Shown: positions 97 to 61,565 of the stretch, one piece after another
Position numbering within the stretch: position 1 is the first letter of the stretch
How the letters are laid out: each line of letters opens with the position of its first letter
Source: a virus
DNA: 64,000 bases
Virus record (IMG/VR): IMGVR_UViG_3300030329_003925
Location: 13,220-77,219 of that record
Direction: 5' to 3' (one strand)
Program-made: the position numbers and the translations under genes
Notes under the pieces: model-generated
Databases searched by the model: none
Seen by the model: the letters and a program-made list of their open reading frames with translations, nothing else
What the model was told of the DNA's origin: nothing

Positions 97-525
97 TTAA
101 TACCATACTGGATTATCGAACCTTTTCATCGTCGAATAAAAATCATCGATAATCTGTCTATCCTCATCACTATAAATACCACCGGGAGCAATAATTATTT
201 TGTCATTTCCCACATTCGCTTTGATCTCGGCATTATAAGCCACATGACCAACGGGAACAAGGTCGCGGGAAGGATCTGCACTCGGGACAATTACAAAGTC
301 CCAGCCCATATCATCCGCAGGATTTATAAATTCTGACCACTCACCGTAATCGAATAATAGTTCTTTTGGCTCTCCACGAAACTTCTTCATAGAGCCTTTG
401 GGAAAATCAATGTGCATCTTCTGGTCTGGGTTGTCGCGGATGATTGCGATCATCTCATCCCTTGTCGGCACAATTGTCTTTTCTTCGTTCAAGAATTTCT
501 TCCAATTTTCATAAAGCTTTTCCAT
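97..525 (-). CDS. Inorganic pyrophosphatase-like protein with class A leader (MEKLYENWKKFLNEE)
   Basis: DYGE...NPADDMGWDFVIV and a DKII motif resemble the family I PPase YG..DGDPxD signature. Confidence 0.55.
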   Translation of the reverse strand: MEKLYENWKKFLNEEKTIVPTRDEMIAIIRDNPDQKMHIDFPKGSMKKFRGEPKELLFDYGEWSEFINPADDMGWDFVIVPSADPSRDLVPVGHVAYNAEIKANVGNDKIIIAPGGIYSDEDRQIIDDFYSTMKRFDNPVWY

Positions 526-526
526 G

Positions 527-973
527 CTACACCATCATGATAATGCAAGCCACCAGATTATTGCTCATATGACACACAAGAGAAGCCTTAATGTTGCCTG
601 TCTTATATTTGAACCACCCCAGAAGGAAAGAGATTGGCAACAAGCCTAAGACATGTAACAGGTCCACATGAATGAGAGCAAAAAGAATGCTGATGACGAT
701 ATAAACTGTTTTCTCTTTCAGGAACCTCGACATGAAATTCCACAGAGCACCTCGAAAGATGGCTTCTTCAATAAGTGGAGCCACCACGATAATACAGAAT
801 AACATGAAATACTGTAAAAATCCATAAGTTTCTGCTCCAAAAATACCATTCACCATTTCTAGGTTCTGGGACTGAGTGCTCGGAACTAAGTTGGACAAGA
901 GTGTCACAATAAAAGCAGGAACAATACTGATTAACGCGCCTCCCAGAAACGCTTTGGTGTAAGGGTATCTCAT
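527..973 (-). CDS. CPBP (CAAX/Abi) intramembrane metalloprotease
   Basis: APLIEEAIFRG, FALIH and HMSNN motifs; several hydrophobic helices. Confidence 0.9.
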   Translation of the reverse strand: MRYPYTKAFLGGALISIVPAFIVTLLSNLVPSTQSQNLEMVNGIFGAETYGFLQYFMLFCIIVVAPLIEEAIFRGALWNFMSRFLKEKTVYIVISILFALIHVDLLHVLGLLPISFLLGWFKYKTGNIKASLVCHMSNNLVACIIMMV

Positions 974-1851
974 TTAATCTCCTCCAGCATATTGGCTAAG
1001 TCTAGACCGGCGCAATCTATCTTTTTTGACGTTATATTGTAGTGATTACAAAAGCCGTTAAATCGCCCTTTGTAGACCTCGTAATTTACCCCAGTGTCCA
1101 ACCCCTCGGAAGCCATTGGAGCCACGAGAGGTACCTTACAAGCCAAGGAAACGGCTTTCCACAATGCCTTGGCAGCGTCAAGCTGAACTGGGTAGAATCC
1201 AAGGTGGGTTTCGAGAGGTTTTCCATGTACAATTGCATCAGTGATGACAGGTCGAGGACCAAAACGTTTCGTATACCAGTCTTGGTACTTTGGGTAGAAC
1301 GCGTTACTAATTTCGACGCCAACACTCTTGGTGTTGACTATGCTGTTGCCTGCGTGCCATGCTCTGTGTTGCATATCGAGAAGTTGATAGATTGTTCCGT
1401 CATTGTCGATGCAGAAATGTACACTTACTTTACGCTTATTGAGGACGCTGGCGCACGACTTGGAACTCAGACAAACATCCCAGTGATTGACAAACATTGA
1501 AATGTCTCTAGGCTCTTTGCCTGAGTAGTCGGTATAAGTGCCCTTATTCATCCGCAGACCACCGGGCTCATCCCATGTCACCACCTTATCCCATTCAATC
1601 GGAAAGAATTCGCCATTATAGACGATGTGCTCACCTTTGGGCTCATAATCGTCAATATTGGCTTGACGATCAGTGAAGATGCGTCGATAAGTCGAGGGTC
1701 CACAGAGACCATCAGCCGAAAGACCAAGGCTTCTCTGGAATTCCATAATTTTCTCAACGAGCTTCTCGTCGTAGTCATCTGCGCCAAACCAATCAGGCTT
1801 CCACCCGTAACGTCGGGATGAATTCAAATTATATTTTATTTTGCTGTCCAT
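970..1851 (-). CDS. Endolysin: peptidoglycan-binding domain plus Amidase_2 N-acetylmuramoyl-L-alanine amidase
   Basis: FQRSLGLSADGLCGPST (PG-binding); HW, SVHFCIDNDGTIYQ, AWHAG, SVGVEI, H...KIDC (amidase). Confidence 0.9.
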   Translation of the reverse strand: MDSKIKYNLNSSRRYGWKPDWFGADDYDEKLVEKIMEFQRSLGLSADGLCGPSTYRRIFTDRQANIDDYEPKGEHIVYNGEFFPIEWDKVVTWDEPGGLRMNKGTYTDYSGKEPRDISMFVNHWDVCLSSKSCASVLNKRKVSVHFCIDNDGTIYQLLDMQHRAWHAGNSIVNTKSVGVEISNAFYPKYQDWYTKRFGPRPVITDAIVHGKPLETHLGFYPVQLDAAKALWKAVSLACKVPLVAPMASEGLDTGVNYEVYKGRFNGFCNHYNITSKKIDCAGLDLANMLEEIK

Positions 1852-1872
1852 TGTCTGCTCCTTGCGATAAGA

Positions 1873-3387
1873 TTACCACCTCGATATCGGGTACATCGAT
1901 GGCGGCGTGCCAGCCCCAATTCTTTGAAGCTCCATATGTTTCTCGGCTACGGCAGCTATTTTCTCGGGAGAGTCTCCAACACGGAATTTGCCTTTGGGTC
2001 GATTATCGCCAGCAAGTTTAGATAATTTTTCAAGCGTTTTATAGGGAGTTTCTAAATTTCTTGCAATAGCCATTCGAATCCAACCATTTGCGTCTTCTTC
2101 ACTGCTAAGACTGCCAAGTTTATCGAGCGTTTCTGGTGGGGTGTTTTCGTTCTTGGCAACAGCGGAGCGAATATACTCTTGCAGACTCCAATGTGAGTCT
2201 CGTTCGCCATCTTCACTCGCGAATGGCATGGATGCAAGCCTAGCCAATACTTTCGGGTACTTGGTCCGAGCCCCCAGTGTGTGTCGAACGGTTCCATCTT
2301 CATCGCCTTCATCGACATCTGCCAACGTCATGTGAATACCTTCTTCTGCGCTGGGGTTAGTGGCAATGTTTCGCCATATCTGAGTAGGGTTGCTTCCATG
2401 ATAATGCACTATCAAGTCATATAAGACGCTGCTTGGGGTGTTCTGATTGCCAGCAATGTTTGTCAGCACGCCATCATCGTCAATGGCGATTGATGCTTGG
2501 AGCAGAGACTCTTTTGCCAACTGCTTTAATTCTTCGGGGTCAGTTGAGTTCTCTGCGCGTTCTCGTTTTTTCCAGTCGTTGATAACATCATATTTTTCCG
2601 CTGCTCCAGTGGCGATTAGCATGTCTACCAATTTAGTGGCTTGCTCAGACTCAACGCTCCAATCATCCTCATCCATAAACTGTTCAGAGCCAAAATGAAA
2701 TTGATATCTTGATCCACTCTCTTTGTGCTCGAAATAAAACAGTGGATCTTCTTCTTCGTAATATTGCTCGAAATAATCCAAGCCGGGAGCGGCAGTACAC
2801 CATTCAGTACCTTTTCCAAGCTCACAGGCTGCGCCTTTATTGTGGATGGCATAAATTTTCCATTCTTCATCGTCCCGAAAGACTTCGGTGCCCTCTTCGG
2901 CATCCATATATTTCTTCTCGGCTTGGTATGCCTTTATTTTGGGTTCTGCCTCGGCATAAACGTTCAGGAGATCGTCCAAAGTGTGTATGGTGAAGATGTC
3001 TTTCTTCTCCATGAACCGATGCCACTGAAAATAGAGTTCGAGATAGTGTCTGGTGATTCCAAGAGAGTCAGAAACTTTGGGATCCCACAGTGTATCTGCA
3101 ATTTCCTTATCTTTTAGTCCTCTTGATAAGATCCATTCGAGAGCAGTGCCTCTTTGGTTGTCGTCGAGGTCATCAGGAACCATGTGTAACAAAGCTTTGG
3201 CGATCAAATCCGCCTTATACTCTATTTCGTTTTTTGAGAGCTTGAGCGTTCTGGATTCTGGATCCCATGCACGATTCTTGATAAAGCTGCGCAAAACCTT
3301 GGAATTCTCCATACGATCTACCGCTTGTTCAAAAGATATTTCGGTGAGGAGAACGAATTTTCTCCACTCATTGAAGATTTCTTGCAT
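1873..3387 (-). CDS. Leader-bearing protein with a PcfJ-like domain and C-terminal LRV/HEAT-like repeats
   Basis: MQEIFNEWRKF leader; ACELGKGTEWCTA motif; repeated A.N.NTP...L..L units. Confidence 0.55.
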   Translation of the reverse strand: MQEIFNEWRKFVLLTEISFEQAVDRMENSKVLRSFIKNRAWDPESRTLKLSKNEIEYKADLIAKALLHMVPDDLDDNQRGTALEWILSRGLKDKEIADTLWDPKVSDSLGITRHYLELYFQWHRFMEKKDIFTIHTLDDLLNVYAEAEPKIKAYQAEKKYMDAEEGTEVFRDDEEWKIYAIHNKGAACELGKGTEWCTAAPGLDYFEQYYEEEDPLFYFEHKESGSRYQFHFGSEQFMDEDDWSVESEQATKLVDMLIATGAAEKYDVINDWKKRERAENSTDPEELKQLAKESLLQASIAIDDDGVLTNIAGNQNTPSSVLYDLIVHYHGSNPTQIWRNIATNPSAEEGIHMTLADVDEGDEDGTVRHTLGARTKYPKVLARLASMPFASEDGERDSHWSLQEYIRSAVAKNENTPPETLDKLGSLSSEEDANGWIRMAIARNLETPYKTLEKLSKLAGDNRPKGKFRVGDSPEKIAAVAEKHMELQRIGAGTPPSMYPISRW

Positions 3388-4220: not shown

Positions 4221-5153
4221 TTAAACGTATTCGTCCACGTCTTTTTTGAGAGTGGTTGCGTTCTTCTGAGCTTTTAAAGCCGCTTGCTTAGCGTCTGGAG
4301 AGTTCAGAAAATATGTGTTGACGTTTCGTGACAACTTATCCATCTGGTCATAGATCTCTGTGAGATTGTCACCGAGTTGGTCGGCATACTTTTGCGCAAT
4401 CTTTTTAATGTTCTCTCGGGACCCTAAATCGAGTGTCCCCAAGAAATACTCGTCTTTTTCAATGTCTCTCGTATAAATTCCACTGCTTAAATCATACGAA
4501 TCAAAATCTCCCGCAAACCCGCCTTCCCTATTTCCTATCGTAAACGAATAGAAATCAATACTCACGACAGTTCCGGTTTTGTGCTCTCTATTTTTAAGCG
4601 CCACAATATATTTTATTGGCTGCTGATATTTCTCAATTGCCGTTTCCAAGTTTTGCCAAGAGCCCTTGATATATTTGGGACCCGCAAACAGCAACTTCAG
4701 ACTCAGGGGCTGTCCTTCTGCGTCGAGGAGATCTTCAATAGCTTGATAGCGCCCGCCCGGTGTGGGAACCTGACGAGCCTGACCCCCTAAAAGCACAGCC
4801 AAGATAGATTCGAATAAGAATCCGCCCGTCTTATCGTTAAAATCGTAGATTAAAGATGCAAGAGAGTCCAGAAAAACAAGATTGCCGAGAATCTCAGGAA
4901 TATCCTTGGTGGCTACACAGGCTTCGTCACAATCTTTTACAAACTGCTGAAGAGATGCGATTTTTTCACCCAGCGTGTTACCTTTGATTTTGGACGTAAA
5001 CATTTCAATAATCTGACGATCATCGGTTCCCGGCTCACCCCACTTCTCTGAAATTTTAAAGCTCGGAAGGGAAATGGTTCCCTTTTCACCGCCTTTTTCC
5101 AATTGGGCTTCTTCGGATAGAAATTTATTCCAATTTTCGAATAAGAGATTCAT
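4221..5153 (-). CDS. Leader-bearing protein with a possible restriction-endonuclease-like (PD-(D/E)xK variant) domain
   Basis: MNLLFENWNKFLSEE leader; GFLFE...IEDLL...SLKLL pattern. Confidence 0.4.
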   Translation of the reverse strand: MNLLFENWNKFLSEEAQLEKGGEKGTISLPSFKISEKWGEPGTDDRQIIEMFTSKIKGNTLGEKIASLQQFVKDCDEACVATKDIPEILGNLVFLDSLASLIYDFNDKTGGFLFESILAVLLGGQARQVPTPGGRYQAIEDLLDAEGQPLSLKLLFAGPKYIKGSWQNLETAIEKYQQPIKYIVALKNREHKTGTVVSIDFYSFTIGNREGGFAGDFDSYDLSSGIYTRDIEKDEYFLGTLDLGSRENIKKIAQKYADQLGDNLTEIYDQMDKLSRNVNTYFLNSPDAKQAALKAQKNATTLKKDVDEYV

Positions 5154-5773
5154 TTTTTGACAAGCTCCTTATTAACTATGTCGTAGCCGTCAACAACGCC
5201 AATGTTAAAATAGTCGAAACCGTCCAGAAGTGCTATCTTTTGCTCGGCAAAGTCCCCCAGCATATTATATACGCTCACCTGCCCAACCACTTCTGTAAAC
5301 AAGGCTGGTGCTGCTGCTGGGGGTAAAGTCTTTAAGTGTGCATTGTAGGCTGCATACTCGCCCCTCAAGGTAAATTCTGTCCCCCTTGAGCCAATTGCTT
5401 GAATATGTGACATATAATCGTGGATGGCTCTAAACTTGGCATTCGTAACTTCGTCAAAGATGTCGTGATCAGCATCAATGGTGGCGATTCTCATCTTGCC
5501 GGTTGTATTTACTTCATCACGCAGTTCTTGTGCCGATTCATATGGGTGATAGTCTACGAACTCCACGTCCACTCTTGATTGAATCTGTTTAAACATCTTT
5601 TCGATAAAAGGAACCATAGCTTCGAAACTGGGAACAGCCCTTTGTTCAAATTTTGGAGCAGCCATATAAGCATCGGCAACAAGTTGAGCATACAAGTCCC
5701 AGCCGTTAGGACCGGGCTTGAGCATCAGCTTCTCGTTGAGGAAACCTCTCCAATTTTCAAAAAGGTTCTGCAC
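5150..5773 (-). CDS. Leader-bearing hypothetical protein
   Basis: MQNLFENWRGFLNE leader; FRAIHDYMSH motif. Confidence 0.6.
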   Translation of the reverse strand: MQNLFENWRGFLNEKLMLKPGPNGWDLYAQLVADAYMAAPKFEQRAVPSFEAMVPFIEKMFKQIQSRVDVEFVDYHPYESAQELRDEVNTTGKMRIATIDADHDIFDEVTNAKFRAIHDYMSHIQAIGSRGTEFTLRGEYAAYNAHLKTLPPAAAPALFTEVVGQVSVYNMLGDFAEQKIALLDGFDYFNIGVVDGYDIVNKELVKK

Positions 5774-5778
5774 TAGTT

Positions 5779-6807
5779 TTACCCTTTCTGCTTTTGGGAA
5801 GGGGCTTTCGTGCCATTCTCCATCAAGCTGGACGGGTCTTGGGTGCTTAGGAATTCGATCACTTCTTCGCGATTTTCTAGCTCCCGCTTACCTTTTCCGG
5901 TAAACCCTATCTGAGCCATGTCTTCGGCTCCTTCGGCTTCAAGGCGATCTATGAGTTCTTCGTCGCTTAAATCGGAGAAATCACCTACGGGCAAAACCAT
6001 TCCAAGGTTGCCCTCTCGGATATTGCGAAGCTCCTCTCTTATTATTTCTTCAAGTTGCTCACTAATTTTTTTCGCCCGCCTTGTCACAGGCTTGCGAGGT
6101 CTAGAACTCGCCTTGGTTGCCGCATGTGAGCGTTGTGCGCCCATTCCTTGCGTCCGTGGAAATTCTTCACCTTTCTCGGGCGTCATCATAAGCTCCTGTT
6201 CGGCTTCATAAGCATCGTGGTCGGAAATATAGCGGTCTTCAAGTCCTCTGGTATATTCCGATGGATCATAATCTGGCTTGTAAGAACGAGCTTCTTCATC
6301 TTGAGCCTGCTGCTCTAGTTCGGCAGTCAAGCTATGATGCATTTCTTCTAACTCTTCGACGCTCATCTCATCGAACTTAATCCAGCGAGGTCGAATGCCG
6401 TTCACATACTTGTAAAGATCATAAATAGATGCCGATAGAGCATCATGAAGTTCTTCGGGAGGAATGGGTTTCCACTCTTCTTCCGACGCAGTATCAGCCT
6501 CTAGAGCTTCTTTTACAAGTTTTGAAACATTAATTTTCTTCAAAGCTTCTTTTGCGAGGGCTGCTGGGTTGCCACGCACACCCGCTGCCCTTCCATAGAC
6601 GGCTTGTCTCTGACCAATATTCAGAGGATCTTCCCCCGTAAAGGCAGCAGAAAGATAATCAATACTTAAATCTAATTTTTTCATCTGATTCAGTAACTGA
6701 GACAGGAGGTCTTCGAGTCCCGATGCTACAAAGCGTACTTCGCCACTTTCATTCGACTCAAAGCCTTCATATAAAAGTTTTTTTGCTTGTGCTTTGCTGA
6801 TTTTCAT
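5779..6807 (-). CDS. Acidic leader-bearing hypothetical protein (possible head internal protein)
   Basis: MKISKAQAKKLLYE leader; internal leader-like repeats (ISEQLEEIIREEL). Confidence 0.55.
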   Translation of the reverse strand: MKISKAQAKKLLYEGFESNESGEVRFVASGLEDLLSQLLNQMKKLDLSIDYLSAAFTGEDPLNIGQRQAVYGRAAGVRGNPAALAKEALKKINVSKLVKEALEADTASEEEWKPIPPEELHDALSASIYDLYKYVNGIRPRWIKFDEMSVEELEEMHHSLTAELEQQAQDEEARSYKPDYDPSEYTRGLEDRYISDHDAYEAEQELMMTPEKGEEFPRTQGMGAQRSHAATKASSRPRKPVTRRAKKISEQLEEIIREELRNIREGNLGMVLPVGDFSDLSDEELIDRLEAEGAEDMAQIGFTGKGKRELENREEVIEFLSTQDPSSLMENGTKAPSQKQKG

Positions 6808-7148
6808 TTTGTTCTATCCTTATCGTCGTCGCGTTTTGCGGGATGCTTGTGACCCTCTTCGATAGTTGGCTCTATGTCTTCTGCTAAGAGGTTTCTAACA
6901 ATTGTGTCTCCAAATTTCATGTCATAGATGCCAATTTCACCGCTCTCGTTGAGTGAGTGCCAAAGCACTTTGCCAACTGGGTTTTTGATTCCGTATCTTT
7001 CTTGTAAGGCTGAACTCAGCCTTCCTTCCTTCATTCAAGTGTGTTCTAGGTCTTTTAGCTCATCTTCGAGTTCTTTTTTTCTCTTTGCTTGAGCTTTTGT
7101 AAGTTCTTCCTTGATGAGATTTCTAAGCTGTGTTTTTGTGATTTTCAT
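6804..7148 (-). CDS. Candidate selenoprotein (114 aa if UGA38 is read through), with class B leader and His-rich metal-binding pattern
   Basis: The 37-aa ORF MKITKTQLRNLIKEEL...LEHT (7035-7148) is in frame with ORF 6804-7034, separated by one TGA; a hairpin follows 11 nt downstream. Confidence 0.55.
7006..7023 (-). promoter_or_regulatory. Bacterial SECIS-like hairpin AAGGCUG-AGUU-CAGCCUU
   Basis: Perfect 7-8 bp stem with a GU-containing loop, starting exactly 11 nt 3' of the in-frame UGA (7035-7037). Confidence 0.55.
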
Positions 7149-7149: not shown

Positions 7150-7368
7150 TTATGCTCCTATCGCTTTTTTCTGGGCGGGTGTGAGGATATTGTCTTGGAT
7201 TGCTCTGATAACCTCGTCGGCTGTGGTATTGTAGGCTTTCGTAACCCTGCCTATTAAGCCCTCTATCTCGTCACCAACTGCCACGCTTAACATTGGTCCA
7301 GTGTTTTCCGTCACGGATGCAAGTTCTTCCTTGATAATCTGTTTAAGTTGTGCTTTTGTGATTTTCAT
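7150..7368 (-). CDS. Small class B leader protein
   Basis: MKITKAQLKQIIKEEL N-terminus. Confidence 0.65.
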   Translation of the reverse strand: MKITKAQLKQIIKEELASVTENTGPMLSVAVGDEIEGLIGRVTKAYNTTADEVIRAIQDNILTPAQKKAIGA

Positions 7369-9634: not shown

Positions 9635-10090
9635 CTACTTTTCTATTTCTCTTATTGTGCCGCAAACATTTATAGGCTCTATGGGTTCATAGTCGCTTAT
9701 TTGGAAGTCATTTGACTCCATACTTTTCGCTTCTACAAGGGGGTTTGTAGCTATCGTAATATGAGGGTGGTTGGGACCCCTCATCGGAAGTGCAACGCCT
9801 TCTAGGTCCACTAGAGCGCTTGCTACGCGGTCGTTTAAAGCGATACCCACAACTTTGACGCATAAACCAGTCCCAAGCCAGCGAGAAGGTAGCCTTCTCT
9901 TCATTTCTGGAGGGCTGATGATGGTCATGTGGTGTGCAATGGGCGTCCAGCCCTCTGGGGCATACGGAACCAAGGCTCGGTGACCCAAATCGTTGAGGAC
10001 AAGCCCTGTATACTCGATATGTTTAGCCATATCGGTCCCAAGGGAGATCTCGGACAGATGATCGCGCCAATTTTCAAGTAGGAGCTTCAT
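9635..10090 (-). CDS. 2H phosphoesterase with class A leader
   Basis: Two HxT motifs (HMTI, HITI); MKLLLENWRDHLSE leader. Confidence 0.75.
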   Translation of the reverse strand: MKLLLENWRDHLSEISLGTDMAKHIEYTGLVLNDLGHRALVPYAPEGWTPIAHHMTIISPPEMKRRLPSRWLGTGLCVKVVGIALNDRVASALVDLEGVALPMRGPNHPHITIATNPLVEAKSMESNDFQISDYEPIEPINVCGTIREIEK

Positions 10091-10476
10091 TCTACTCCTC
10101 CGAACATTCTCTTGAATATTTTGGGTGTATCTGGATTATCCAGATCTAAAATCTTTGCTTTTATCGTCTCAACCTTTTGGTTGATAGCCTTTTGTAGTCG
10201 ATGGTTGCCGTCTAAGACATACTTAAACTCGCCACCTTTTCTTACAACTATGATAGGAAACTCTAAACTTGCTGCTTTAACTCGCTCTTCACCGCGTGTT
10301 GGAAGAGGAGGTATCTGATTAGAAAGTTCTAAAACATTAAGATCAACTGTTTTATTACCCAAGAAGTCATCAATCTCACCGAGTGTGACCTTTTCTTCGT
10401 CGGTTTCCCACGATGTATCACGCCAACTTTTGTTTTCGTTGATAAACTTGTTCCAGTTTTCAAGTATGAGTTTCAT
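10087..10476 (-). CDS. ParB/Sulfiredoxin-like domain protein with class A leader
   Basis: PIIV...VLDGNHRL motif; MKLILENWNKFINE leader. Confidence 0.75.
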   Translation of the reverse strand: MKLILENWNKFINENKSWRDTSWETDEEKVTLGEIDDFLGNKTVDLNVLELSNQIPPLPTRGEERVKAASLEFPIIVVRKGGEFKYVLDGNHRLQKAINQKVETIKAKILDLDNPDTPKIFKRMFGGVE

Positions 10477-11672
10477 TGCCCAATAAATCCTACGATATCG
10501 TTATAAGTATTGTCCAGTTGTCGATTATGGATGGCAGCAAGAACTTTTCTGAAAGCATCACCTATCTGTTGTCCTCGGAATCCTAGTTCCATCATCTCTC
10601 TGCCGTTAATGTCGAGTTCCTTGGGAGAGAGAGGAAACTGTAATGCCTCTTCAATCTTGTCGGCTTGCTGAGTCATGCCAGCCTGCCGAAGAACACTAGC
10701 AATCAAGGGGAGTCTCCCTCGTTGTCCGCCCCCATACTCATAAACTTCTTTTGTATCCTCGGCTGCTTCCTGAGCAAGTTCAAGATATTGAACCATTTCG
10801 TTGGTGGGGCGCATCATATTGTGGTCGCCCCCTTCCAGAAAGAACGCAATGAAGTTGCCGAGTGTCTTGTCTTGGTTGTTGCCCCCGACCTCGATTGCGT
10901 AGGGATTAAAATCTTCTCCAAATATTGTTTTCCCGATTCCTGTCTCCTTCAAGAGCGAAACCAGTATATGGGCGTTGCCCGAGCCTTTCGTCCACGCCTT
11001 TGCAAGCTCCATAAACAGGCGTTCACCTGCAACCGACCCAATATCTCCCACATTTTTCTTGATGGCGTCTAAAGTTTCAGGCTCAATGGCGAAACCAAAG
11101 CGAGTGGCGAACTGAATAGCACGAAACATTCTCAAGGGATCTTCTTTAAATCTCTCATTAGGATCTCCCACGGTTCTGATAATTTTATTTTTTAAGTCTT
11201 CCTGTCCTCCGAACAAATCTATGATATTGCCTTCGGAGTCTTTGGCGAGAGCATTGATGGTAAAGTCTCTTCTGCCCAAATCAGACTCCACAGGAGCATT
11301 GGGATCTGTCTCCACATCAAACTCTGTGTGTTTCTCGCCCGTCTTTGTTTCGGAGGTTCTGGGAATGGCAAAGTCAAATTCCTCTCCATCAATTGTTGCA
11401 GTCACCACCCCAAATGCTTGCCCTACCTCTTTTACTTTTCCGAGAGGAGACAAAACAGAAACAATATCAGAGAGTGACAAGCCACGCACAAGGAAATCAA
11501 CATCTTTGGATGGGGGAGTGTCAGGCAGGAGTTCATCTCGCACTGCTCCTCCTACAATATAACTTTCACCACCGCCCTGCTCTAGTGCTGCTTCAATCTT
11601 TTCAATTGTAGCTGGATCGACTGCTTCATTGAGTTTCACAAACTCTCGCCAATTTTCAAGTAGGAGTTTCAT
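10473..11672 (-). CDS. cca: Class II tRNA nucleotidyltransferase (CCA-adding enzyme) with class A leader
   Basis: VGGAVRD, DVD, RRDFTINAL, RFKEDPLR motifs; flexible loop present; no HD domain; start reassigned to MKLLLENWREF. Confidence 0.88.
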   Translation of the reverse strand: MKLLLENWREFVKLNEAVDPATIEKIEAALEQGGGESYIVGGAVRDELLPDTPPSKDVDFLVRGLSLSDIVSVLSPLGKVKEVGQAFGVVTATIDGEEFDFAIPRTSETKTGEKHTEFDVETDPNAPVESDLGRRDFTINALAKDSEGNIIDLFGGQEDLKNKIIRTVGDPNERFKEDPLRMFRAIQFATRFGFAIEPETLDAIKKNVGDIGSVAGERLFMELAKAWTKGSGNAHILVSLLKETGIGKTIFGEDFNPYAIEVGGNNQDKTLGNFIAFFLEGGDHNMMRPTNEMVQYLELAQEAAEDTKEVYEYGGGQRGRLPLIASVLRQAGMTQQADKIEEALQFPLSPKELDINGREMMELGFRGQQIGDAFRKVLAAIHNRQLDNTYNDIVGFIGQ

Positions 11673-11711
11673 ATTCTTAATTAGTCTAGCCAGATGATAA
11701 GAGACGCAATA

Positions 11712-11742
11712 AAAAAAGGGCAGCGCGTTATGCACTGCCCTT
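11712..11742 (-). terminator. Rho-independent terminator
   Basis: AAGGGCAG(T/C)GC stem followed by a U-run on the minus strand. Confidence 0.7.
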
Positions 11743-11763
11743 CGTTGCCCCCGGTTAAGGAGC

Positions 11764-11991
11764 CTACTTGTTCATGATGGTCATCAGCACCCAAAGGGCA
11801 ACCAGACCAACGAGACCTTCGCTTCCAAGCTGAGCAGTAATGTCGATAACACTACCGACAACATCCAGAGGGAAGAACGGCACACTTGCTCCGAAAAGCA
11901 CCTGAAGCACAACAGCGAGGGCGAGCAGAGACACAGAAAAATCTGTGAGCCCCTTAACCCAAGTTCCGGCTGTTTGTAATCTTTCCAACAT
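11764..11991 (-). CDS. Small two-TM membrane protein
   Basis: Strong RBS (AAGGAG); two hydrophobic segments; followed by a terminator. Confidence 0.7.
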   Translation of the reverse strand: MLERLQTAGTWVKGLTDFSVSLLALAVVLQVLFGASVPFFPLDVVGSVIDITAQLGSEGLVGLVALWVLMTIMNK

Positions 11992-12110
11992 ATTATTTTC
12001 CTCCTTAACACATGAGTTTGTGTTGCCGGTAACTACCTCCCAGAAACTTCAAAAGCCCCACCGAGAGGACATTCACTATTCATTCCAGATTACGCATTCT
12101 GCGTATTTTT

Positions 12111-12800
12111 TTACGCAGTCTGGGGCTTTCCGACCATGATCTTCATGTGTTTTTCGCCGCCAATGTCTCGGGTATACCATCCATTGTAGCCATCGTATTT
12201 GCCCTCTGGGTGAGGACCGATCCATTCGATCTCTTTTCCAAGAGTCTTGCGAACTGTTTCTTCGTCATTTACGGGAGGAACGCCGTGATACTTAATCAGC
12301 ACATGTGCTAGACCTTTGGAAACCTCGCCATAGAACCCATCATCAAACATCATTTCAGCGGTCTTGTTGATGTATCTCTTAATAGCCTCTTGGGAACCAT
12401 CGTGACCACCGGCACCCAATTTCTTGCCCTTATTGATGCGCAACACATCAGGCTTCGGGTCACCATCAATATCCAGTGCAAGATAATTGTCGTATTTGCC
12501 CGGTAGATCTTGAGCCTTCTGGAGTTTTATGTGCCCTCCGATGCTCTTGTAAGCAGTATTAATAAGATTGAATAGCTCTCCCGCTATGTTAACGTCGCCG
12601 CCTTGCTCCGTCGCCGCTTGACGTATATCTTCGACTGGCACGGTAAACCATTCATCCTTGGCAATCCCATAATCTTCCCATTTTTTCTCTTGGAGACCAT
12701 CTGGCTCCATATATGGATGGTCATCAAGATATTTTTTCATGCGAGGATCAACTTTTTCCTCTTTCATGAATTTGCGCCAGTTTTCGAATAGGAGTTTCAT
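12111..12800 (-). CDS. Leader-bearing hypothetical protein
   Basis: MKLLFENWRKFMKEE leader. Confidence 0.65.
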   Translation of the reverse strand: MKLLFENWRKFMKEEKVDPRMKKYLDDHPYMEPDGLQEKKWEDYGIAKDEWFTVPVEDIRQAATEQGGDVNIAGELFNLINTAYKSIGGHIKLQKAQDLPGKYDNYLALDIDGDPKPDVLRINKGKKLGAGGHDGSQEAIKRYINKTAEMMFDDGFYGEVSKGLAHVLIKYHGVPPVNDEETVRKTLGKEIEWIGPHPEGKYDGYNGWYTRDIGGEKHMKIMVGKPQTA

Positions 12801-12827: not shown

Positions 12828-13139
12828 TCAATCCATGTCGTCAATGCGGTTATAGTCGGGATCATTTGCCAGCACATCAAGTGCTTCTTCTAAGCGTCTG
12901 ATAACAAGGTGGGTCGTTCCCGGCTCGTCACCTCCATCTTGGAGCATCTGAATAGCGTCTTGGATATGGTATGCCACGGAACCCTCTTCGGGTACGCCTT
13001 CATCGGTGCCCACAGTAAACGGTAGGTCAGTCTTAGAACCGGCGCCGCCTATTTTCGTGAAAGTAACGTTGGGGCGGTCGAACAGGTCGTCTAGTTCTTC
13101 CTTGATGACTTGTTTCAGTTTTGCTTTTGTGATTTTCAT
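12828..13139 (-). CDS. Small class B leader protein
   Basis: MKITKAKLKQVIKEEL. Confidence 0.65.
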   Translation of the reverse strand: MKITKAKLKQVIKEELDDLFDRPNVTFTKIGGAGSKTDLPFTVGTDEGVPEEGSVAYHIQDAIQMLQDGGDEPGTTHLVIRRLEEALDVLANDPDYNRIDDMD

Positions 13140-20474: not shown

Positions 20475-20542
20475 ACAAATAATTGTCCTTGACAAACCAT
20501 AGAAAATCGACTTGATACTTCCCCTTTCTACCCTCTCTCTCT

Positions 20543-48194: not shown

Positions 48195-48824
48195 TTACTT
48201 ACGCGTGATCTTAGTCTTCTTATTTTCCTTCATCGCTGCGCGGAGTCGAGCCGTAACTCTCTTCAAAACCTCAGCCACAATTTCTTCATCATCAACCATT
48301 TCCACATCAAGCTCGTCACCGCCAACTTCCATATCAACTTCAGCTTCCATGTCATCGACAGCCACATCTTCTGGTCCTGCATCGTCGCCACTTTCAACAT
48401 CAACGGCGATACCATACTTGTCCTCAAGCGCGTCTGCAATCGTAGCCACAATGTCAACCACATCTTCTTCGGAAACATCGCCGCCCATAGCTTCCTCCGC
48501 TCCAAGGTCTGCTTCCAGATCGGCAATCTCATCGCCCTCTGCATCAGCCTCGTGATCTTCTGCACCCAACTCATCTTCAGTCGCATGGAGTTCGCTCTCT
48601 TCTTCGGACTCCTCGTTGACGTAATCAACACGTCCATGACCGGGAGTCTTTGCCAGCGTACCCTCAGCACCGCGCTTTTCTGCGCCTTTTCGTTTGTCCT
48701 CACCGGGTTCTTCTTTCTTCGCGGTATAAGGCTTGTCCTCTACGATAAAATTATCGGTGAGGGCGTCGATATTAGCCAGTTTCATGAAGCGGCGAATCTG
48801 TGCCTCTTTTAGTAATTTACTCAT
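48195..48824 (-). CDS. Very acidic probable head scaffold/internal protein
   Basis: LLKEAQIRRFMKLA N-terminus; D/E-rich body; late-type motif upstream. Confidence 0.55.
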   Translation of the reverse strand: MSKLLKEAQIRRFMKLANIDALTDNFIVEDKPYTAKKEEPGEDKRKGAEKRGAEGTLAKTPGHGRVDYVNEESEEESELHATEDELGAEDHEADAEGDEIADLEADLGAEEAMGGDVSEEDVVDIVATIADALEDKYGIAVDVESGDDAGPEDVAVDDMEAEVDMEVGGDELDVEMVDDEEIVAEVLKRVTARLRAAMKENKKTKITRK

Positions 48825-53244: not shown

Positions 53245-53471
53245 ACACTCCTCCCATCAGTACACACTATCCACGCTCCACCATTAACCCATCGTTCTTT
53301 GTGGGCACTTAGTCCATGCTTCGATGACATCTCCTTAACGGTGTCGATGTTGTATCGAGAATGTCCTGTAATGATTTTAACCGGCAGATTGTCAAAATTG
53401 TCTGTCAAAAATTTTTCCACTCTGAACAATATATCATATCTTTCCACTTTGTGCAAGTCTAAAGTTTTCAT
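53241..53471 (-). CDS. Standalone Smr domain protein
   Basis: LDLH, KIITG, NGGA. Confidence 0.7.
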   Translation of the reverse strand: MKTLDLHKVERYDILFRVEKFLTDNFDNLPVKIITGHSRYNIDTVKEMSSKHGLSAHKERWVNGGAWIVCTDGRSV

Positions 53472-56400
53472 CCAAGCACTCTAAAATTGCTCCGAAGAGA
53501 TCGTGTGCTAAAGCCCCACTGATCACTGTAGTCTAAACGTGCCATGTAAGGGCGGTTAAGAGCTATATTATCTTTGTTTGGGTCAATTCCCCAACAACGA
53601 ATACTGGTAGCGGCGTTGTTTTCGTCTGTGACTTCCAAGATCCAATAGTCTTTGCCAGTGCGCGTCTTCTTGGAAATACACTTGCGTGGGATAAACCACG
53701 TCACCATCAAATCGGGATCAAACATGCTGATAGGCGGAACACACATCTTATCCAGTCGTCCTCGGATGTCCTCGTTCATCACTCGCTCCAAGGGAAATTC
53801 TCCAGTCAAGTCAATGATAAACTGAATCTCGTCTTCTTCGCTGAATTCTCCCTCTGGAGAATAAGTCTTGATGTTCTCTTCAAGGTTTTTCAGCTTGCGT
53901 GGGCGATCCACCGCAACGGCTGACCAGAAGTGCTTGCCTCCCGTAAACCTCTCGTCCTTGAGGGGATCAAGCGCACCACTCCGCACAAGTACATCGAGAG
54001 CCCTTTTGTTCAACTTGGAATAGACAATGTTCTCGTTGAACAAGAACTCTTCTATATTTACAAATGGTCGGTTGTCGAGCACCTGCTTAATTGCCGCCTC
54101 TCCCAATCCCTTGATAGCGGTCAACGGCTGGATAAGCGTCTTTCCGTCGTCTGAAATCTCCCAGACCTTTCCAGATGTATTCACATTCAACTTGGCAATC
54201 TCAAAGCCATACTTCTTGGCAATCGTGATAGCTTTCGCTTTGCGAGTCTCTGGCTCCTTGTCCAAGAACGCTGCCATCCAGCACTCAGGATAATAATTTA
54301 GAAGCCACGCACATTGGAATGAAATCATCGAGTATGAGATTGCATGAGACTTGTTGAAACCATAGCCAGAGAAGAATTCAAACTTCTCCCACAATGCGTT
54401 AGCTTGTCGTGCGGTCATCCCCTTCTCAACGCACCCATCCACAAACTTGGTGTATAGAGCCTTCTTGACCTTGGCAGTCTTTCCGGTGCCCTTCTTCGTC
54501 AGCACCTTACGAAGCATGTTGCCCTCGTCCAAAGATAAATCTTTGCCAAGACGGTGAGCCAGTGCAGAAATCTGCTCCTGAAAAATTAGAAATCCGTATG
54601 TCTCTTCTGTGACCTCGCGGTAGTCTTCGTTGGGATACCGGATGTATTGCGGGTTTTCCTTCGCCTCGACATAATCCCTGTCCACCTTAGCCGACAGCGG
54701 TCCCGGTCGGAAGATGCTCGTAACAGCAGCAATATCAATGATGCTGGTTGGCTTTGCGACCATGCACAAGTTCTGCGCCCCATCCTCTGTGAACTGGAAT
54801 ACACCAGCCCACTTACCTTTCTGAAAGATGTTCTCATAGACATTCTGGTCTGTCAGGTCGATCTTGTCGGGGTGCAGGTTCTCGTCATAGAACTTTCTCA
54901 CCTCTTCGAACGAGGGGTCTTCGTTCCCCTGCCTACGCAAAATATGACGGACAGCCCCCTCAATCATTCGAAGTGTCGAGAGTCCCAACAGGTCAAACTT
55001 AATGAAGCCCATTGGCTCCAAGTGCCTGACGTTCTGTCCCTCGCTCCACGGAGTCTGCCGAACACCGCCACTGTTGATGAGGGGCATGTACTGGTCAAGG
55101 TTCTCAGCAATCACCACTCCCCCTGCATGACGCGAACATGAACGCACCTGACCATGCAGAGCCTCAACGTGAGTCTTGACGTGAGGATACTTCTGCAAGA
55201 AGCCATTCAAGCTCGGGCTGTACTCCATCACCTCTTCGAATGTGGGGATATACATCCCAGCCTTAATCCCGTGAGCCTTCTTAGCAGGTCCAGTTGCCTC
55301 ACTAATCATAGCTCCGGTGACCTTATTGACTTCCATGAAAGGAATGTTGTAAAACTTAGAAATGTCTTTGATGAGACTGCGAAGCTGCAATGTGTTCCAG
55401 TTAGAGATGGGCACGACTGTATCGTCTCCCCACTCCTCAATCAAAGCCTCCTTCAGTTTCATAGGCTCAGCTACATCGTAATCGATGTCAGGGTAGTCGG
55501 TTGCGTCTGCTCGGAGGAACCTTGCGAACTGAAGTCCGTACTTCAGAGGATCAATCTGAGTAATACCAAGCACATACGCCACCAGTGAACCAGCGGCTGA
55601 ACCACGTCCCGGTCCTGTCAACATCAGCTTGTTGGCTCGGTCCACGATTGCCTTCATGGTTAGAAAGTATTTTGAGAACCCTCGGTCATCAATCGTGTAG
55701 AGTTCGCTCTTGAGCCTCTCGATGTATTCATCATTGGTGTGTAAGCCCAGTGTGCGAAGCGCATCAATGCTAAGGCGTGCCAAAGCCTGTGTTGCTGTAG
55801 CCCCCTCGGGGACCACAAAGTCGGGAAGGCGCACCTCGTTGTCTGGCATGAAGTCTTCGATGCGTTCAAACGCAATCTTGTAAGTCTCTGTCAGCGAATC
55901 CATCACAAGGTCATCATCGTATTCAACCCCTTGCAATTTGCTGTACCGATGATACGACTCCCACATCTGCTCGCCATTCTTCGGATAGAGTTCGCACTTC
56001 AGGTCTTCAGGTTCTGGAAGCTCCTCTGAAAGATATTCAGGTCGCTTTCCAAGCCATCCAAGCCTCTTATAAAGTTCCCTGTCCTTCCAAGCGTCGGGAC
56101 CGGGATAGTGGCTATCAGCCGTAGAGATCAGCTTGATACCGAACTCTTTATGCATCTGGATAATGTATTGGTTGAGTTCGTGCTGCTCGGGGATGTTGTT
56201 CCATTGTAGCTCTCCGTACCACCTATCGTCAAAAATCTCCACCATGCGGCGAGTAGCCTCCCTCATGGCTTCTAATGCCGCCTCTTTGTCTGTACCAGTT
56301 CTCTCGCCTTCCTCGTTGTAGATGCCACTCTCCCACATACAGCCAGCATAAACGCCACCCAAACAAGCAGATGCAGCCATCACACCTTCGGAATAGCGCG

Positions 56401-56905
56401 AAAGCAAATCATAATCCACGCGAGGGTAACGATAATAATTATCGTCGGTGTAGCTCTCAGAGACAATCTTAAACAGATTGTTCAGACCAGTCTGATTCTG
56501 ATCGAGCAAGATAAGATGACGACGACGGTTGAGCATATTCTTTACCGCTTTCTTGGAGGCTTCCTCGTCCTCCACTGTAGCCCCAGACGCCGCCTTCTTC
56601 TTGAGTTTCTGCTCCGCTTTCACGCGGTCATACTCCTCTCTCCATTCTTTGGTCGAGGGAATAAAGTACGCCTCGATCCCAAAGATAGGTTTAAATTCTT
56701 TTCCCTCAGCCTGCATCTTCTTGGCGTGCAAGACCTGATGAGCAAGCCCGTTCATATTGCCGTGGTCAGTCAGAGCCAAAGCCTTAGACCCATTCGCATA
56801 GGCATAGTCCATATGCTGCTGTGGATAACCAATTGCATCAAAAATAGAACCTGCAACGCTATGTGCGTGCAAGCCAACAAACGGTATTTGTTCATCATTC
56901 ATCAT
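53468..56905 (-). CDS. dnaE: DNA polymerase III alpha subunit (family C) with PHP domain
   Basis: LHAHS, LTDHG, GRGSAAGSL, PDIDYD, HAGGVV, KFDLLGL, YGFNKSH. Confidence 0.97.
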   Translation of the reverse strand: MMNDEQIPFVGLHAHSVAGSIFDAIGYPQQHMDYAYANGSKALALTDHGNMNGLAHQVLHAKKMQAEGKEFKPIFGIEAYFIPSTKEWREEYDRVKAEQKLKKKAASGATVEDEEASKKAVKNMLNRRRHLILLDQNQTGLNNLFKIVSESYTDDNYYRYPRVDYDLLSRYSEGVMAASACLGGVYAGCMWESGIYNEEGERTGTDKEAALEAMREATRRMVEIFDDRWYGELQWNNIPEQHELNQYIIQMHKEFGIKLISTADSHYPGPDAWKDRELYKRLGWLGKRPEYLSEELPEPEDLKCELYPKNGEQMWESYHRYSKLQGVEYDDDLVMDSLTETYKIAFERIEDFMPDNEVRLPDFVVPEGATATQALARLSIDALRTLGLHTNDEYIERLKSELYTIDDRGFSKYFLTMKAIVDRANKLMLTGPGRGSAAGSLVAYVLGITQIDPLKYGLQFARFLRADATDYPDIDYDVAEPMKLKEALIEEWGDDTVVPISNWNTLQLRSLIKDISKFYNIPFMEVNKVTGAMISEATGPAKKAHGIKAGMYIPTFEEVMEYSPSLNGFLQKYPHVKTHVEALHGQVRSCSRHAGGVVIAENLDQYMPLINSGGVRQTPWSEGQNVRHLEPMGFIKFDLLGLSTLRMIEGAVRHILRRQGNEDPSFEEVRKFYDENLHPDKIDLTDQNVYENIFQKGKWAGVFQFTEDGAQNLCMVAKPTSIIDIAAVTSIFRPGPLSAKVDRDYVEAKENPQYIRYPNEDYREVTEETYGFLIFQEQISALAHRLGKDLSLDEGNMLRKVLTKKGTGKTAKVKKALYTKFVDGCVEKGMTARQANALWEKFEFFSGYGFNKSHAISYSMISFQCAWLLNYYPECWMAAFLDKEPETRKAKAITIAKKYGFEIAKLNVNTSGKVWEISDDGKTLIQPLTAIKGLGEAAIKQVLDNRPFVNIEEFLFNENIVYSKLNKRALDVLVRSGALDPLKDERFTGGKHFWSAVAVDRPRKLKNLEENIKTYSPEGEFSEEDEIQFIIDLTGEFPLERVMNEDIRGRLDKMCVPPISMFDPDLMVTWFIPRKCISKKTRTGKDYWILEVTDENNAATSIRCWGIDPNKDNIALNRPYMARLDYSDQWGFSTRSLRSNFRVLG

Positions 56906-59406: not shown

Positions 59407-59724
59407 TTATACTTGCGTGTTCTCATGGCGACTGATCATTTCAAGAATCGTATTCTCATCCTTAAGCCCGACAGATTGCTCAACCATCTTGCCATCCTTC
59501 ATTACGATCAAGAATGGAATTCCTCTCACGCCGTACTGTAATGCAAGTTCACGACTTTCGTCAACATTAACTTTACAAATCTGAGCCTCGACCTTTTGAG
59601 AAACTTTCTCCAAAATAGGCGTCAACGCTTTGCAGGGTCCACACCAATCAGCGTAGAAATCGACCACAGTGATGCCCTGAGACACAGTGTTTTTAAAATT
59701 GTTCTCGTTCAAAAGTTTAATCAT
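59407..59724 (-). CDS. trxA: Thioredoxin
   Basis: DFYADWCGPC, GVRGIP. Confidence 0.95.
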   Translation of the reverse strand: MIKLLNENNFKNTVSQGITVVDFYADWCGPCKALTPILEKVSQKVEAQICKVNVDESRELALQYGVRGIPFLIVMKDGKMVEQSVGLKDENTILEMISRHENTQV

Positions 59725-59873
59725 CTTCCTTGTCCTCTATATTTCTTCTTATATCCCTTTGGGATTGTGTTGTTTGAGTTAAGACTCTTGTGTCTGGTAT
59801 TTTTACCATTTCCGATTGAAGTCTTTTTTCTGTTGGCACCCTTTGGCTTCCAACTGTTAGTGGACTTTGCCAT
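59721..59873 (-). CDS. 50-aa basic conserved phage protein (not in ORF track)
   Basis: MAK...KKTSIG...KKYRGQGR; GAGG RBS; ATGA overlap with trxA. Confidence 0.65.
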   Translation of the reverse strand: MAKSTNSWKPKGANRKKTSIGNGKNTRHKSLNSNNTIPKGYKKKYRGQGR

Positions 59874-60132
59874 CTTCCTCTCCTTTAATGAGAATATCTA
59901 ATTCTCCACTTTCATCCATAGCCAATAAATCGGAACAACCTCCGATATATTTGTTCCCAAAAAATATCTGGGGAACTGTGTTTTTGCCTGTACGCTCCGC
60001 TAACAGCATCCGAGCCACATCATTGTGAGAGACATCAAACACCTCATAATGCGCCCCCTTGTAGGTAAGGGTCATAATTGCCTGCTTACAATAAGAGCAA
60101 TAATTTGCCGAAAAGATTCTAAACTTCTTCAT
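59857..60132 (-). CDS. Glutaredoxin
   Basis: CSYC, TVPQIF, IGGCSDL. Confidence 0.92.
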   Translation of the reverse strand: MKKFRIFSANYCSYCKQAIMTLTYKGAHYEVFDVSHNDVARMLLAERTGKNTVPQIFFGNKYIGGCSDLLAMDESGELDILIKGEEDGKVH

Positions 60133-60829
60133 TCTTCGCTCTCCTATAAGATCCCACTGCAACGGGGAATAGTTCCTCTGCAATCTCCAAGCAAGCCTCC
60201 GCAACCCTCTGGATCTCCCACTGTGCGCCTTCGTGCATACGAAGATCGACGAACTTCAAGAGGTTGTTGAGGTTGACTGTACCGTAATACTCTGTGTACA
60301 TGTTTTGCGGAAGCACTCCTCTTGCTTGCTCTCGGCAAACGCCCGAAGATAAGAGGTCATCATAAAGTTGCATAGATCGCTCATGGTGCCTCTTTAGCAG
60401 CGACGAGGCGCGTAGTCTCCCCCCATCTTCATACGCATACACAACTGGATCAACTAAGTCCTCAGTATTGCTGGCTTGCCGATTTGATTTGTGCTGTGTG
60501 CGAAATTCTTCAGGCTCATAAAACTGAATGTTTACGTCAGTGTACCTGCGAGAGATTTCATTATAGCTCCAAGTCCTGTGTCTGTGATGTTGGCTTCGTA
60601 CATAGAGAGGCACAACAAACCGAAAAGTGATAACATTATGCTCAAACGTGCTCGTATGCCGATGTTCGACCAGATAATTAATAAGCCTTTCGTCTTTCTC
60701 ATCTAGCGACTCCTTGTGTCGTCCAAAGCTAACACGAGCGCTGTTGACAATAGTAAGATCACTACCCAAATGTCCCACATAGTCAACTCTCCCAATGTCG
60801 TCTCCGTAAAGTTTAATCGATTTCAACAA
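60119..60829 (-). CDS. thyX: FAD-dependent thymidylate synthase
   Basis: ARVS, H.STFEH, RHRTWSYNEISRRY, EQARGVLP, AQWEI; TTG start after GAGGTG. Confidence 0.95.
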   Translation of the reverse strand: MLKSIKLYGDDIGRVDYVGHLGSDLTIVNSARVSFGRHKESLDEKDERLINYLVEHRHTSTFEHNVITFRFVVPLYVRSQHHRHRTWSYNEISRRYTDVNIQFYEPEEFRTQHKSNRQASNTEDLVDPVVYAYEDGGRLRASSLLKRHHERSMQLYDDLLSSGVCREQARGVLPQNMYTEYYGTVNLNNLLKFVDLRMHEGAQWEIQRVAEACLEIAEELFPVAVGSYRRAKNEEV

Positions 60830-61565
60830 GCACCTCGTCAAGTCGCTTACGATACTCCTTAACAAGCCCACGATGATGCCATCGAGACTTGGGAGTTCTC
60901 TTCTCCTCAAGGGAAAGCTTCACATGGCTGTTAATTTTGCGAACAAGACCTTCTACCTTCGAATTGCTAGGAAGCTCATCTTCCCGCAGACTGATAGAGC
61001 GTCCATCGTTGGCTGGCATGGCGCCCTCATAGGCGTCATCAAAGAAGGGAATATAAAACTTTCTACCCTTCTTTTGAGAATAATAATCTTTTTTAGCCTG
61101 TATCTCCGGTCCTCCAAGGCTTACATCTCGCGTCTGAATTGTATCGTCGCCCTCGATGTATTCAAAAGTAAAGTAGGGCTCGCCTCCCTCTTGGGCAATT
61201 TTGCGCCCCCAGATAACAGCTTCCTGTCCATATTTAATCCCCAAGTCGGCTACGTCTTGGCGTGTCATGTTCGGAACCAAAAAAGAATTTTCTGGTCCAC
61301 CATAGGATCCCTTAATGGGGATAACACCGTAGTTAGCAGCGATTAAGTCTGCCAATAACTGGGCATTCATCTTATTGTTTTCCTCTGCACTCGCACGCTC
61401 CCCGCCGGGGTTATGTGCAGTTAAAATGCCCAATGTATCAATTGATGGGACAAACCCCATCATCATTTGGCGCACTCTTGCGTACCCCGATTCACTAAGA
61501 AGGTTCATGTATTTGGATGCCTTCACCTCACGAATATACTTTCGAATCTTTCTGTCCATAGTCAT
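60813..61565 (-). CDS. DUF3293-like protein with a leader-like N-terminus
   Basis: ILTAHNP...EN...L..DL...G.YG..ENSF...YGQEAV; IRKYIRE...LLSE. Confidence 0.55.
   Translation of the reverse strand: MTMDRKIRKYIREVKASKYMNLLSESGYARVRQMMMGFVPSIDTLGILTAHNPGGERASAEENNKMNAQLLADLIAANYGVIPIKGSYGGPENSFLVPNMTRQDVADLGIKYGQEAVIWGRKIAQEGGEPYFTFEYIEGDDTIQTRDVSLGGPEIQAKKDYYSQKKGRKFYIPFFDDAYEGAMPANDGRSISLREDELPSNSKVEGLVRKINSHVKLSLEEKRTPKSRWHHRGLVKEYRKRLDEVLVEID

Follow-up and report, generated by a model that had tools for sequence, protein, structure and literature searches.

Bacteriophage T4 loads its internal proteins by means of an N-terminal capsid targeting sequence of 10 residues; targeting depends on residues 4 and 7, processing is directed by residues 8 and 10, and the prohead protease, gp21, cleaves after L/I-x-E (PMC9026906). 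The internal proteins of T-even phages are diverse, with the targeting sequence as their sole common part (PMC3012670). In phiKZ-like phages (SPN3US, 201phi2-1), the propeptides of ejection and inner-body proteins end at S/A-x-E, where a protease related to gp21 cuts them (PMC5694885). Here we describe two families of N-terminal leader peptides, denoted class A and class B, which begin unrelated genes in a 64,000-nucleotide stretch of viral DNA (hereafter the window), comprising positions 13220–77219 of a 77-kb IMG/VR fragment (IMGVR_UViG_3300030329_003925) estimated to be 43% complete. The source is an uncultured marine T4-like phage with a genome of roughly 180 kb. From the sequences we consider it probable (approximately 65%) that the leaders are capsid-targeting propeptides of the T4 internal-protein kind, removed by the head protease. 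Since some 20 unrelated genes carry T4-tag-like leaders, it is probable that many enzymes are loaded into the head of this phage. The principle itself is already known from T4 (PMC3012670); in the literature searched we found no paper that describes such leader classes, the scale on which they are used, the interchange between them, or the third motif introduced below.

The leaders and the T4 tag have in common a short N-terminal position (10–19 residues), unrelated cargo, an L/I-x-E end and the same residue spacing, and in both systems the tagged genes are clustered and variable between relatives. The protease and capsid protein of T4 belong to the gp21 and gp23 families, respectively, members of which are encoded here by complete relatives. 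The leader sequences differ from those of T4, with no significant match by hidden Markov model (HMM), and are at least four residues longer; there are two interchangeable classes and a third motif, much of the cargo is enzymatic, and approximately 20 tagged genes occur in 43% of a genome, compared with three or four in T4, with hundreds of cargo families across the lineage. The phiKZ-like phages likewise load many head-internal proteins via N-terminal propeptides which are trimmed after Glu by a gp21 homologue, as is proposed here; their propeptides, however, are mostly longer than 100 residues, share no one short tag, and end at S/A-x-E rather than L/I-x-E (PMC5694885).

Two leader families in the window are conserved as peptides

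The class A leader (consensus MKLL-L/F-ENW-R-K-F/Y-L/I-x-E) and the class B leader (consensus MKITKxQLKQIIKEEL) each begin nine genes in the window. Six-frame scanning with a regular expression for each class matched class A at 525, 3387, 5153, 5773, 10090, 10476, 11672, 12800 and 14430, and class B at 6807, 7148, 7368, 13139, 13369, 35721, 36500, 36730 and 38975. All 18 matches lie on the minus (coding) strand, which carries every sizeable gene of the window, at 1–41 residues past the previous in-frame stop; none was found within genes or on the plus strand of the window. HMMs built from distinct leaders in IMG/VR (267 of class A and 239 of class B) give these 18 starts scores of 11–38 bits, with each match beginning at the start codon, whilst the best score outside them in the six-frame translation of the window is 10.6 bits. 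A preliminary description of this DNA, made from the sequence without database searches, had proposed that two leader families begin many unrelated genes. Regular expressions, HMMs and direct translation, which reproduces the N-termini quoted there, bear this out with nine starts per class, and the HMM scan that it had suggested recovers the 18 window starts together with approximately 14 tagged genes per complete relative. The cargo was also said to be unrelated, and the tagged proteins of the window, compared by their mature parts, indeed fall into separate BLAST clusters.

Compared pairwise, the leader codons have nucleotide identities of 0.67/0.77 (codon positions 1 and 2) and 0.45/0.53 (position 3), whereas identity in the flanking DNA is 0.27–0.30, which is background; where two leaders share a residue, the same codon is used in just 53–62% of codon pairs. 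Because the third position is freer, the flanks are at background and synonymous codons are mixed, we conclude that selection acts on the leader peptide, and that the leader is not a DNA repeat. A Sec or Tat signal peptide was considered and rejected, as the leaders are without an uninterrupted hydrophobic core and have charged or polar residues every 2–3 positions (E6, N7, R9 and K10 in class A; K5, K9, Q10 and K13 in class B).

The leaders end at a head protease motif with the spacing of the T4 tag

The conserved residues of class A (W8, F/Y11, L/I12, E14) and class B (L8, I11, I12, E14) have the spacing of the T4 tag shifted by four residues, with hydrophobic or aromatic residues 6 and 3 positions ahead of Glu14 in both classes, as Tyr4 and Phe7 are placed in T4. 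The T4 tag, MKTYQEFIAE, was checked in T4 DNA and is present on two T4 genes. Replacing the Glu by Asp in T4 prevents processing and leaves targeting intact. The cut site of the T4 capsid protein gp23 (F-G-S-F-L-T-E, cleaved before A) has the same spacing, and in the alignment with this lineage's capsid proteins its counterpart is L-(R/K)-E, also followed by A.

The information content of class A is 3.5 bits at E14 and less than 1 bit from position 15 on; that of class B drops past position 16. E14 is 90% conserved in class A although it lies outside both the DNA pattern used to sample this class and the regular expression. In cross-sampled sets, that is, leaders sampled through the other leader and hence free of ascertainment bias, class A has L/I/V12 in 91% and E14 in 80%, and class B has I12 in 100%, E14 in 95%, E15 in 91% and L/I16 in 91%. 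The earlier observation that the leaders end in L/I-x-E is thereby upheld, with class A conservation stopping at Glu14, in the cross-sampled sets as well. A second L/I-x-E lies within residues 15–26 in 55% of class B proteins, compared with 11–12% in control windows.

Peptidase_S77 (the gp21 family; E 1e-30 to 5e-35) and Gp23 (E ~1e-60) were detected in all five complete leader-bearing relatives tested (180–205 kb). These include G005, a complete 180.7-kb genome with terminal repeats, with which the fragment is syntenic in reverse orientation (identities of 64% for DnaE, 75% for RNR and 51% for GroEL). The protease of the relatives retains the GEL(N/D)HP and SSRGLGS blocks (His and Ser) of T4 gp21. 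Its gene lies at 103757–104392 in G005; in the cultured phage immuto, described below, the protease is gene 200.

Within the fragment, direct resemblance to the T4 tag is confined to two genes, namely one upstream of the window starting MKLSQEFIRE, and the window gene starting at 46748 (MKSFEQLVKE). The former (L273:8408–8719) encodes a 103-residue acidic protein, the first ten residues of which are identical to MKTYQEFIAE at seven positions.

The leaders are widespread and portable between cargo proteins

An IMG/VR scan with a degenerate DNA pattern for each leader matched more than 119 stretches for each class. The 2 Mb of IMG/VR matches listed contain at least 346 class A and at least 320 class B gene starts, with both classes together at no fewer than 50 loci; at least 609 distinct tagged proteins form at least 351 sequence clusters, and 273 are singletons among the matches listed. 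There are clean pairs of homologous cargo proteins in which the leader is of class A in one contig and of class B in the other, and for this reason the two leaders look like interchangeable modules. The complete genomes have approximately 14 tagged genes each, mostly clustered, with 8 class A and 6–7 class B genes in G005, and 9 and 5, respectively, in a further relative, G002. Three tagged window genes (5153, 5773 and 14430) have tagged orthologues in G005.

The cultured Flavobacterium phage immuto (vB_FspM_immuto) has its own pair of leader families, MENFDLKKFLVEN.. and MKKS(Q/E)L..IIKE(E/A)L, on approximately nine genes, among them one situated between those for the portal and the protease and another orthologous to the deoxyribonucleotidase gene of the window.

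In one class A cargo family (L241:3148–4104 and L155:958–1590), some members have a domain of approximately 100 residues inserted between leader and body, or have the domains reordered, indicating that the cargo itself is modular. Two proteins, G005 11642–12643 (L258) and G002 106766–107824 (L279), start with a class B leader and contain the complete class B motif once more internally, at residues 224 and 237, respectively; these could be fused genes, or polyproteins cut at each motif.

Searches beyond IMG/VR returned little. In tblastn searches of 50,697 GenBank phages with the 23-residue leaders, class B gave no match and class A gave chance microvirus matches, the queries being too short to show absence. 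A full-text literature search for the leader strings returned unrelated noise alone. A protein database search with the 77-residue class B protein of 13136–13369 matched only orthologues (53 relatives, all metagenomic and mostly marine), with no named isolate among the matches. A de novo search of N-terminal 5-mers for additional classes returned conserved N-termini of orthologues and the KVGDLV mini-genes, and no other large leader class.

Tagged genes in the head module and a third motif

The head module of G005 (approximately 97–118 kb) belongs to the part absent from the 77-kb fragment. The prediction that leaders would also be present on scaffold or head proteins is borne out in G002, where tagged genes lie inside the head module: two genes ahead of the protease gene, where genes 67 and 68 are found in T4, there is a class A gene; the large terminase gene is adjoined by one of class B; and W-R-T-F-L-N-E occurs near the N-terminus of the gene after the protease. 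Amongst G005 proteins of more than 100 residues, the density of L/I-x-E is highest in the small protein that follows the protease (5.0 per 100 residues) and in the putative scaffold (4.0), against a genome mean of 1.08; T4 core proteins are likewise rich in L/I-x-E. PHROGs recognised only the protease and an S21-like protein among the G005 head-module proteins. The latter (L263:4764–4988) is a 74-residue homologue of ribosomal protein S21 (PHROG 6e-9), whose gene falls between the protease region and the genes of the tail.

In this lineage, as in immuto, the putative scaffold terminates in ..R-(M/W)-x-x-L-A-G-I-K. 'Class C', a portable motif that is the third described here (..R-R-(F/M)-x-x-L-A-(G/N)-I..), forms the extreme C-terminus of the putative scaffolds L255:159–1277 (G005), L256:221–1270 (G003) and L257:77–1255 (G002). 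Other proteins also end in this motif, including one encoded beside the protease gene, and it is found as ..IRRFMKLANI.. near the N-terminus of a very acidic 209-residue protein of the window (48195–48824, minus strand). This gene had been listed as a class B variant; it carries instead the motif of the scaffold C-terminus. We suggest from these sequences that class C may be the coat-binding helix of the scaffold reused as a tag. Encapsulin cargo-loading peptides and the C-terminal coat-binding helix of the P22 scaffold show that a short portable helix is enough to bring foreign cargo inside an HK97-fold shell; comparably, class C appears to be the scaffold's own C-terminus reused on other proteins. 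The tags of encapsulins are C-terminal and uncleaved, whereas classes A and B are N-terminal and have a protease site.

A promoter-like motif precedes scaffold and leader genes

The motif ACTATTTA(T/A) is strand-specific, with 22 forward and 0 reverse copies in G005 and 0 forward and 15 reverse copies in the fragment (G000), all on the coding strand. Ten of the 15 copies in the fragment sit 16–45 nt upstream of a start codon, and the rest are 420–1063 nt from the nearest called start. ACTATTTA is found 26–40 nt upstream of the G005 and G002 scaffold genes and of four leader genes of the window: on the minus strand, the copies at 3415 and 14456 are 28 and 26 nt upstream of the class A genes 3387 and 14430, and those at 36757 and 39006 are 27 and 31 nt upstream of the class B genes 36730 and 38975. 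It also precedes several tail-region genes, and in the motif scan further minus-strand copies lie at 15210, 17595, 56950 and other positions. A copy is located 30 nt upstream of the MKLSQEFIRE gene (L273:8408–8719). The motif differs from the T4 late promoter, TATAAATA. As judged from its placement, ACTATTTA is a candidate promoter of the lineage, possibly a late one. The expected linkage of the leaders to late promoters is thus supported in part, by a promoter-like motif shared between scaffold and leader genes, and in part weakened, as the motif is also present before DnaE.

Tagged genes of the window and their cargo

All of the following genes are on the minus strand. The class A gene 97–525 encodes a protein of 142 residues beginning MEKLYENWKKFLNE (leader HMM 17.5 bits). 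The protein of 1873–3387 (504 residues) has a sub-form of the leader, W-x-x-F-V-x-L-x-E, and weak LRV repeats. Genes 4221–5153 (310 residues), 5150–5773 (207 residues; GTG start) and 13375–14430 (351 residues) are those with tagged orthologues in G005. The 151-residue protein of 9635–10090 carries a 2H phosphoesterase, with two H-x-T motifs and CNPase and LigT as top fold matches; it is followed by 10087–10476 (129 residues; leader HMM 26.4 bits), which is without known family, and by 10473–11672, which encodes 399 residues from the ATG at 11672 and contains a nucleotidyltransferase of the CCA-adding/poly(A) polymerase type (PF01743 at 1.9e-22). The body of the 229-residue protein of 12111–12800 has a weakly GNAT-like fold. 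An endolysin gene (970–1851) is situated within the class A cluster.

Amongst the class B genes, 5779–6807 (342 residues) has a divergent leader (HMM 19.5 bits), and of all class B cargo clusters its cargo falls into the largest, which has 30 members among the matches listed. The 37-residue open reading frame 7035–7148 (leader HMM 34.1 bits) ends at a TGA, directly after which lies a 76-residue open reading frame (6804–7034). Gene 7150–7368 encodes 72 residues (leader HMM 38.1 bits), and 35398–35721 encodes 107 residues from a GTG start (13.6 bits). The remaining class B genes, each identified by leader HMM and direct translation, are 12828–13139 (103 residues), 13136–13369 (77), 35718–36500 (260), 36497–36730 (77) and 38415–38975 (186). 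Many class B proteins are small (median approximately 100 residues) and highly charged, among the matches listed.

Several variants named in the preliminary description can be retained. The gene 34441–35388, with a weak nucleotidyltransferase match, has a class A variant (W-x-x-F-V-x-L-H-E) of the W-x-x-F-V-x-L-x-E sub-form common to 11672 and 3387. The 5′-3′ deoxyribonucleotidase of 39009–39662 has a shortened class A leader, MYKGWLNFLNE, which keeps W-x-x-F-L-N-E, and its G002 orthologue has a full class A leader. Gene 45606–46748, with the T4-length look-alike MKSFEQLVKE, encodes a 380-residue protein. The variant at 38418 stands once restarted at the ATG at 38412 (37969–38412); it is a class B form two residues shorter, MKREFLESLIREEIEAL, read from the sequence and under the HMM threshold. 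The variants at 40447 and 61565 had no HMM support and were dropped. Of the domains named earlier, the CCA/poly(A) polymerase head domain, the 2H phosphoesterase and the 5′-3′ deoxyribonucleotidase/HAD were confirmed and a nucleotidyltransferase match is weak, whilst the PPase, nuclease, ParB, HhH and ART labels were not reproduced by Pfam or PHROGs, according to which the remaining cargo is mostly without known family.

AlphaFold models were examined for two class A proteins. For 9635–10090, the leader is a detached helix (residues 3–15) with a predicted local distance difference test score (pLDDT) below 50, and the body is confident; for 12111–12800, the leader helix (residues 2–14) likewise has low pLDDT, and the confident body starts at approximately residue 41. 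Leader helix and body are connected by a poorly predicted linker in both models.

Relationship to cultured phages

The closest cultured capsid proteins are those of Flavobacterium phage immuto (48% identity), Microcystis phage Mel-JY01 and Rhodothermus phage RM378; a megablast search of 20 kb of the window against phages gave no matches. Phages of the immuto group have genomes of 155–190 kb with swapped replicative polymerases (preprint 10.1101/2024.04.26.591309). Capsid-protein similarity, genome size and a family C polymerase together suggest that the window phage is placed near this group. The window encodes a GroEL-type chaperonin (43137–44684) and a DnaE (family C) replicative polymerase (53468–56905), which replaces the T4-type family B polymerase despite T4-type head genes, the latter being known from relatives. 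The combination of DnaE and a GroEL-type chaperonin with T4-type head genes is in line with the exchange of polymerases reported in that group. A region of the window (20500–34100) with a G+C content of 0.51–0.55, compared with approximately 0.45–0.48 elsewhere, is dense with small genes, many of which have a (K)VGDLV motif near the N-terminus.

Proposed mechanism and alternative explanations

The tags are under peptide-level selection, are portable across unrelated and homologous cargo, and end at a protease motif. In the mechanism that we propose, the leader would form an amphipathic N-terminal helix of 14–16 residues, hydrophobic at positions 3–5, 8, 11 and 12, which would dock the newly made protein on the prohead scaffolding core during head assembly. 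A gp21-type prohead protease would cut after Glu14 in L/I/V-x-E, in class B often with a second site a few residues on; the mature enzyme or small charged protein would stay in the head with the DNA, and would probably be ejected into the next host. The reading of the leaders as portable packaging tags, put forward in the preliminary description, gains from the protease and capsid protein of the relatives, the L/I-x-E boundary and the T4 spacing; docking to the core, cleavage, packaging and delivery are steps which we infer, delivery (injection) into the host being a step further still.

Several points weigh against capsid targeting. The likeness to the T4 tag is one of pattern and spacing, without demonstrable homology: matches of the leader HMMs to T4 internal and head proteins are not significant, T4 IPII and IPIII score below 0 bits, and the sub-threshold matches (gp67 ..LIKEE.., the gp21 N-terminus ..LLIETW.. 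and the gp23 site) amount to pattern likeness alone. The head module is outside the 77-kb fragment, so the protease of the window phage is deduced from relatives. The scaffold is assigned by position only, and PHROGs and BLAST searches of it against T4 gp22 returned nothing. The CCA-adding enzyme and the deoxyribonucleotidase are also plausible as ordinary cytoplasmic phage enzymes. Finally, ACTATTTA precedes DnaE and other non-structural genes, and its placement is thus no proof of late expression of the leader genes.

The rival explanations each fit fewer observations than capsid targeting with tag removal. The leaders might target the prohead core and yet mark assembly or DNA-condensing components, which would be degraded or kept in the head and not injected. 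The small size and high charge of many class B proteins (median approximately 100 residues), which recall T4 IPII and IPIII (PMC9026906), and the tagged genes within the head module of G002 itself favour such a role; the class A cargo enzymes (2H phosphoesterase, CCA-type transferase, deoxyribonucleotidase), however, have no obvious function in assembly, and T4 Alt and IPI are ejected and active in the host (PMC9026906), which leaves this explanation unlikely. We give slightly less credence to the leaders being docking helices for a non-capsid partner, such as a modifying enzyme, a chaperone (the phage GroEL) or the membrane. Amphipathic leader helices detached from the cargo fold in the models would suit such a partner, as would the phage-encoded chaperonin at 43137–44684, but the stop of conservation at L/I-x-E, the T4 tag spacing and the tagged head-module genes would be left unexplained. 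Moreover, no candidate partner or maturase gene was noticed among the annotated neighbours of the leader clusters, where no systematic screen was made, and the leaders are, as read from their sequence, too charged for Sec or Tat signal peptides.

It is also conceivable that the conserved starts act as nucleic acid, with a functionless peptide: they might be joints at which cassettes are shuffled by recombination, or A-rich enhancers of translation initiation. The first codons of class B are indeed A-rich (ATG AAA ATC ACA AAA), the gene arrays are variable, and cargo is exchanged between leaders. Third codon positions, however, vary freely (0.45–0.53 compared with 0.67–0.77 at positions 1 and 2) between flanks at background, and Trp8, Phe11 and Glu14 are kept with differing codons across hundreds of divergent contigs; this possibility is accordingly very improbable.

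Implications

Beyond capsid targeting as such, we tentatively advance a broader idea, which is itself rather doubtful: the tags would be copies of the phage's own head-assembly interfaces, providing three loading routes, and this widespread marine lineage would swap hundreds of enzyme families in and out of the virion as a pre-made, injected counter-defence and RNA/nucleotide-repair kit. Class A might then, speculatively, correspond to the last helix of the capsid propeptide (..LLENQAKELLRE, followed by the cut and A), with which it is alike by eye, with one residue difference in length and no HMM match. Class B resembles, at the level of sequence pattern, both the N-terminal ends of proteins of the prohead core and the I-K-E-E site in gp67 of T4, and class C would be the C-terminal helix of the scaffold. 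The injected kit would include the 2H phosphoesterase, the CCA-adding enzyme, the deoxyribonucleotidase and the GNAT-like protein.

As immuto is cultured and has analogous leaders, the idea is directly testable. If the leaders are packaging tags, a leader on an otherwise unknown phage gene would predict 'virion cargo', and new short tags would be available for loading foreign proteins into capsids. The three-protein trick of T4 would be used far more widely in nature, with an abundant marine lineage bringing approximately 15–25 tagged proteins per genome, from hundreds of families, into each infection, and injected enzymes would constitute a major, fast-evolving layer of the conflict between marine phages and their hosts.

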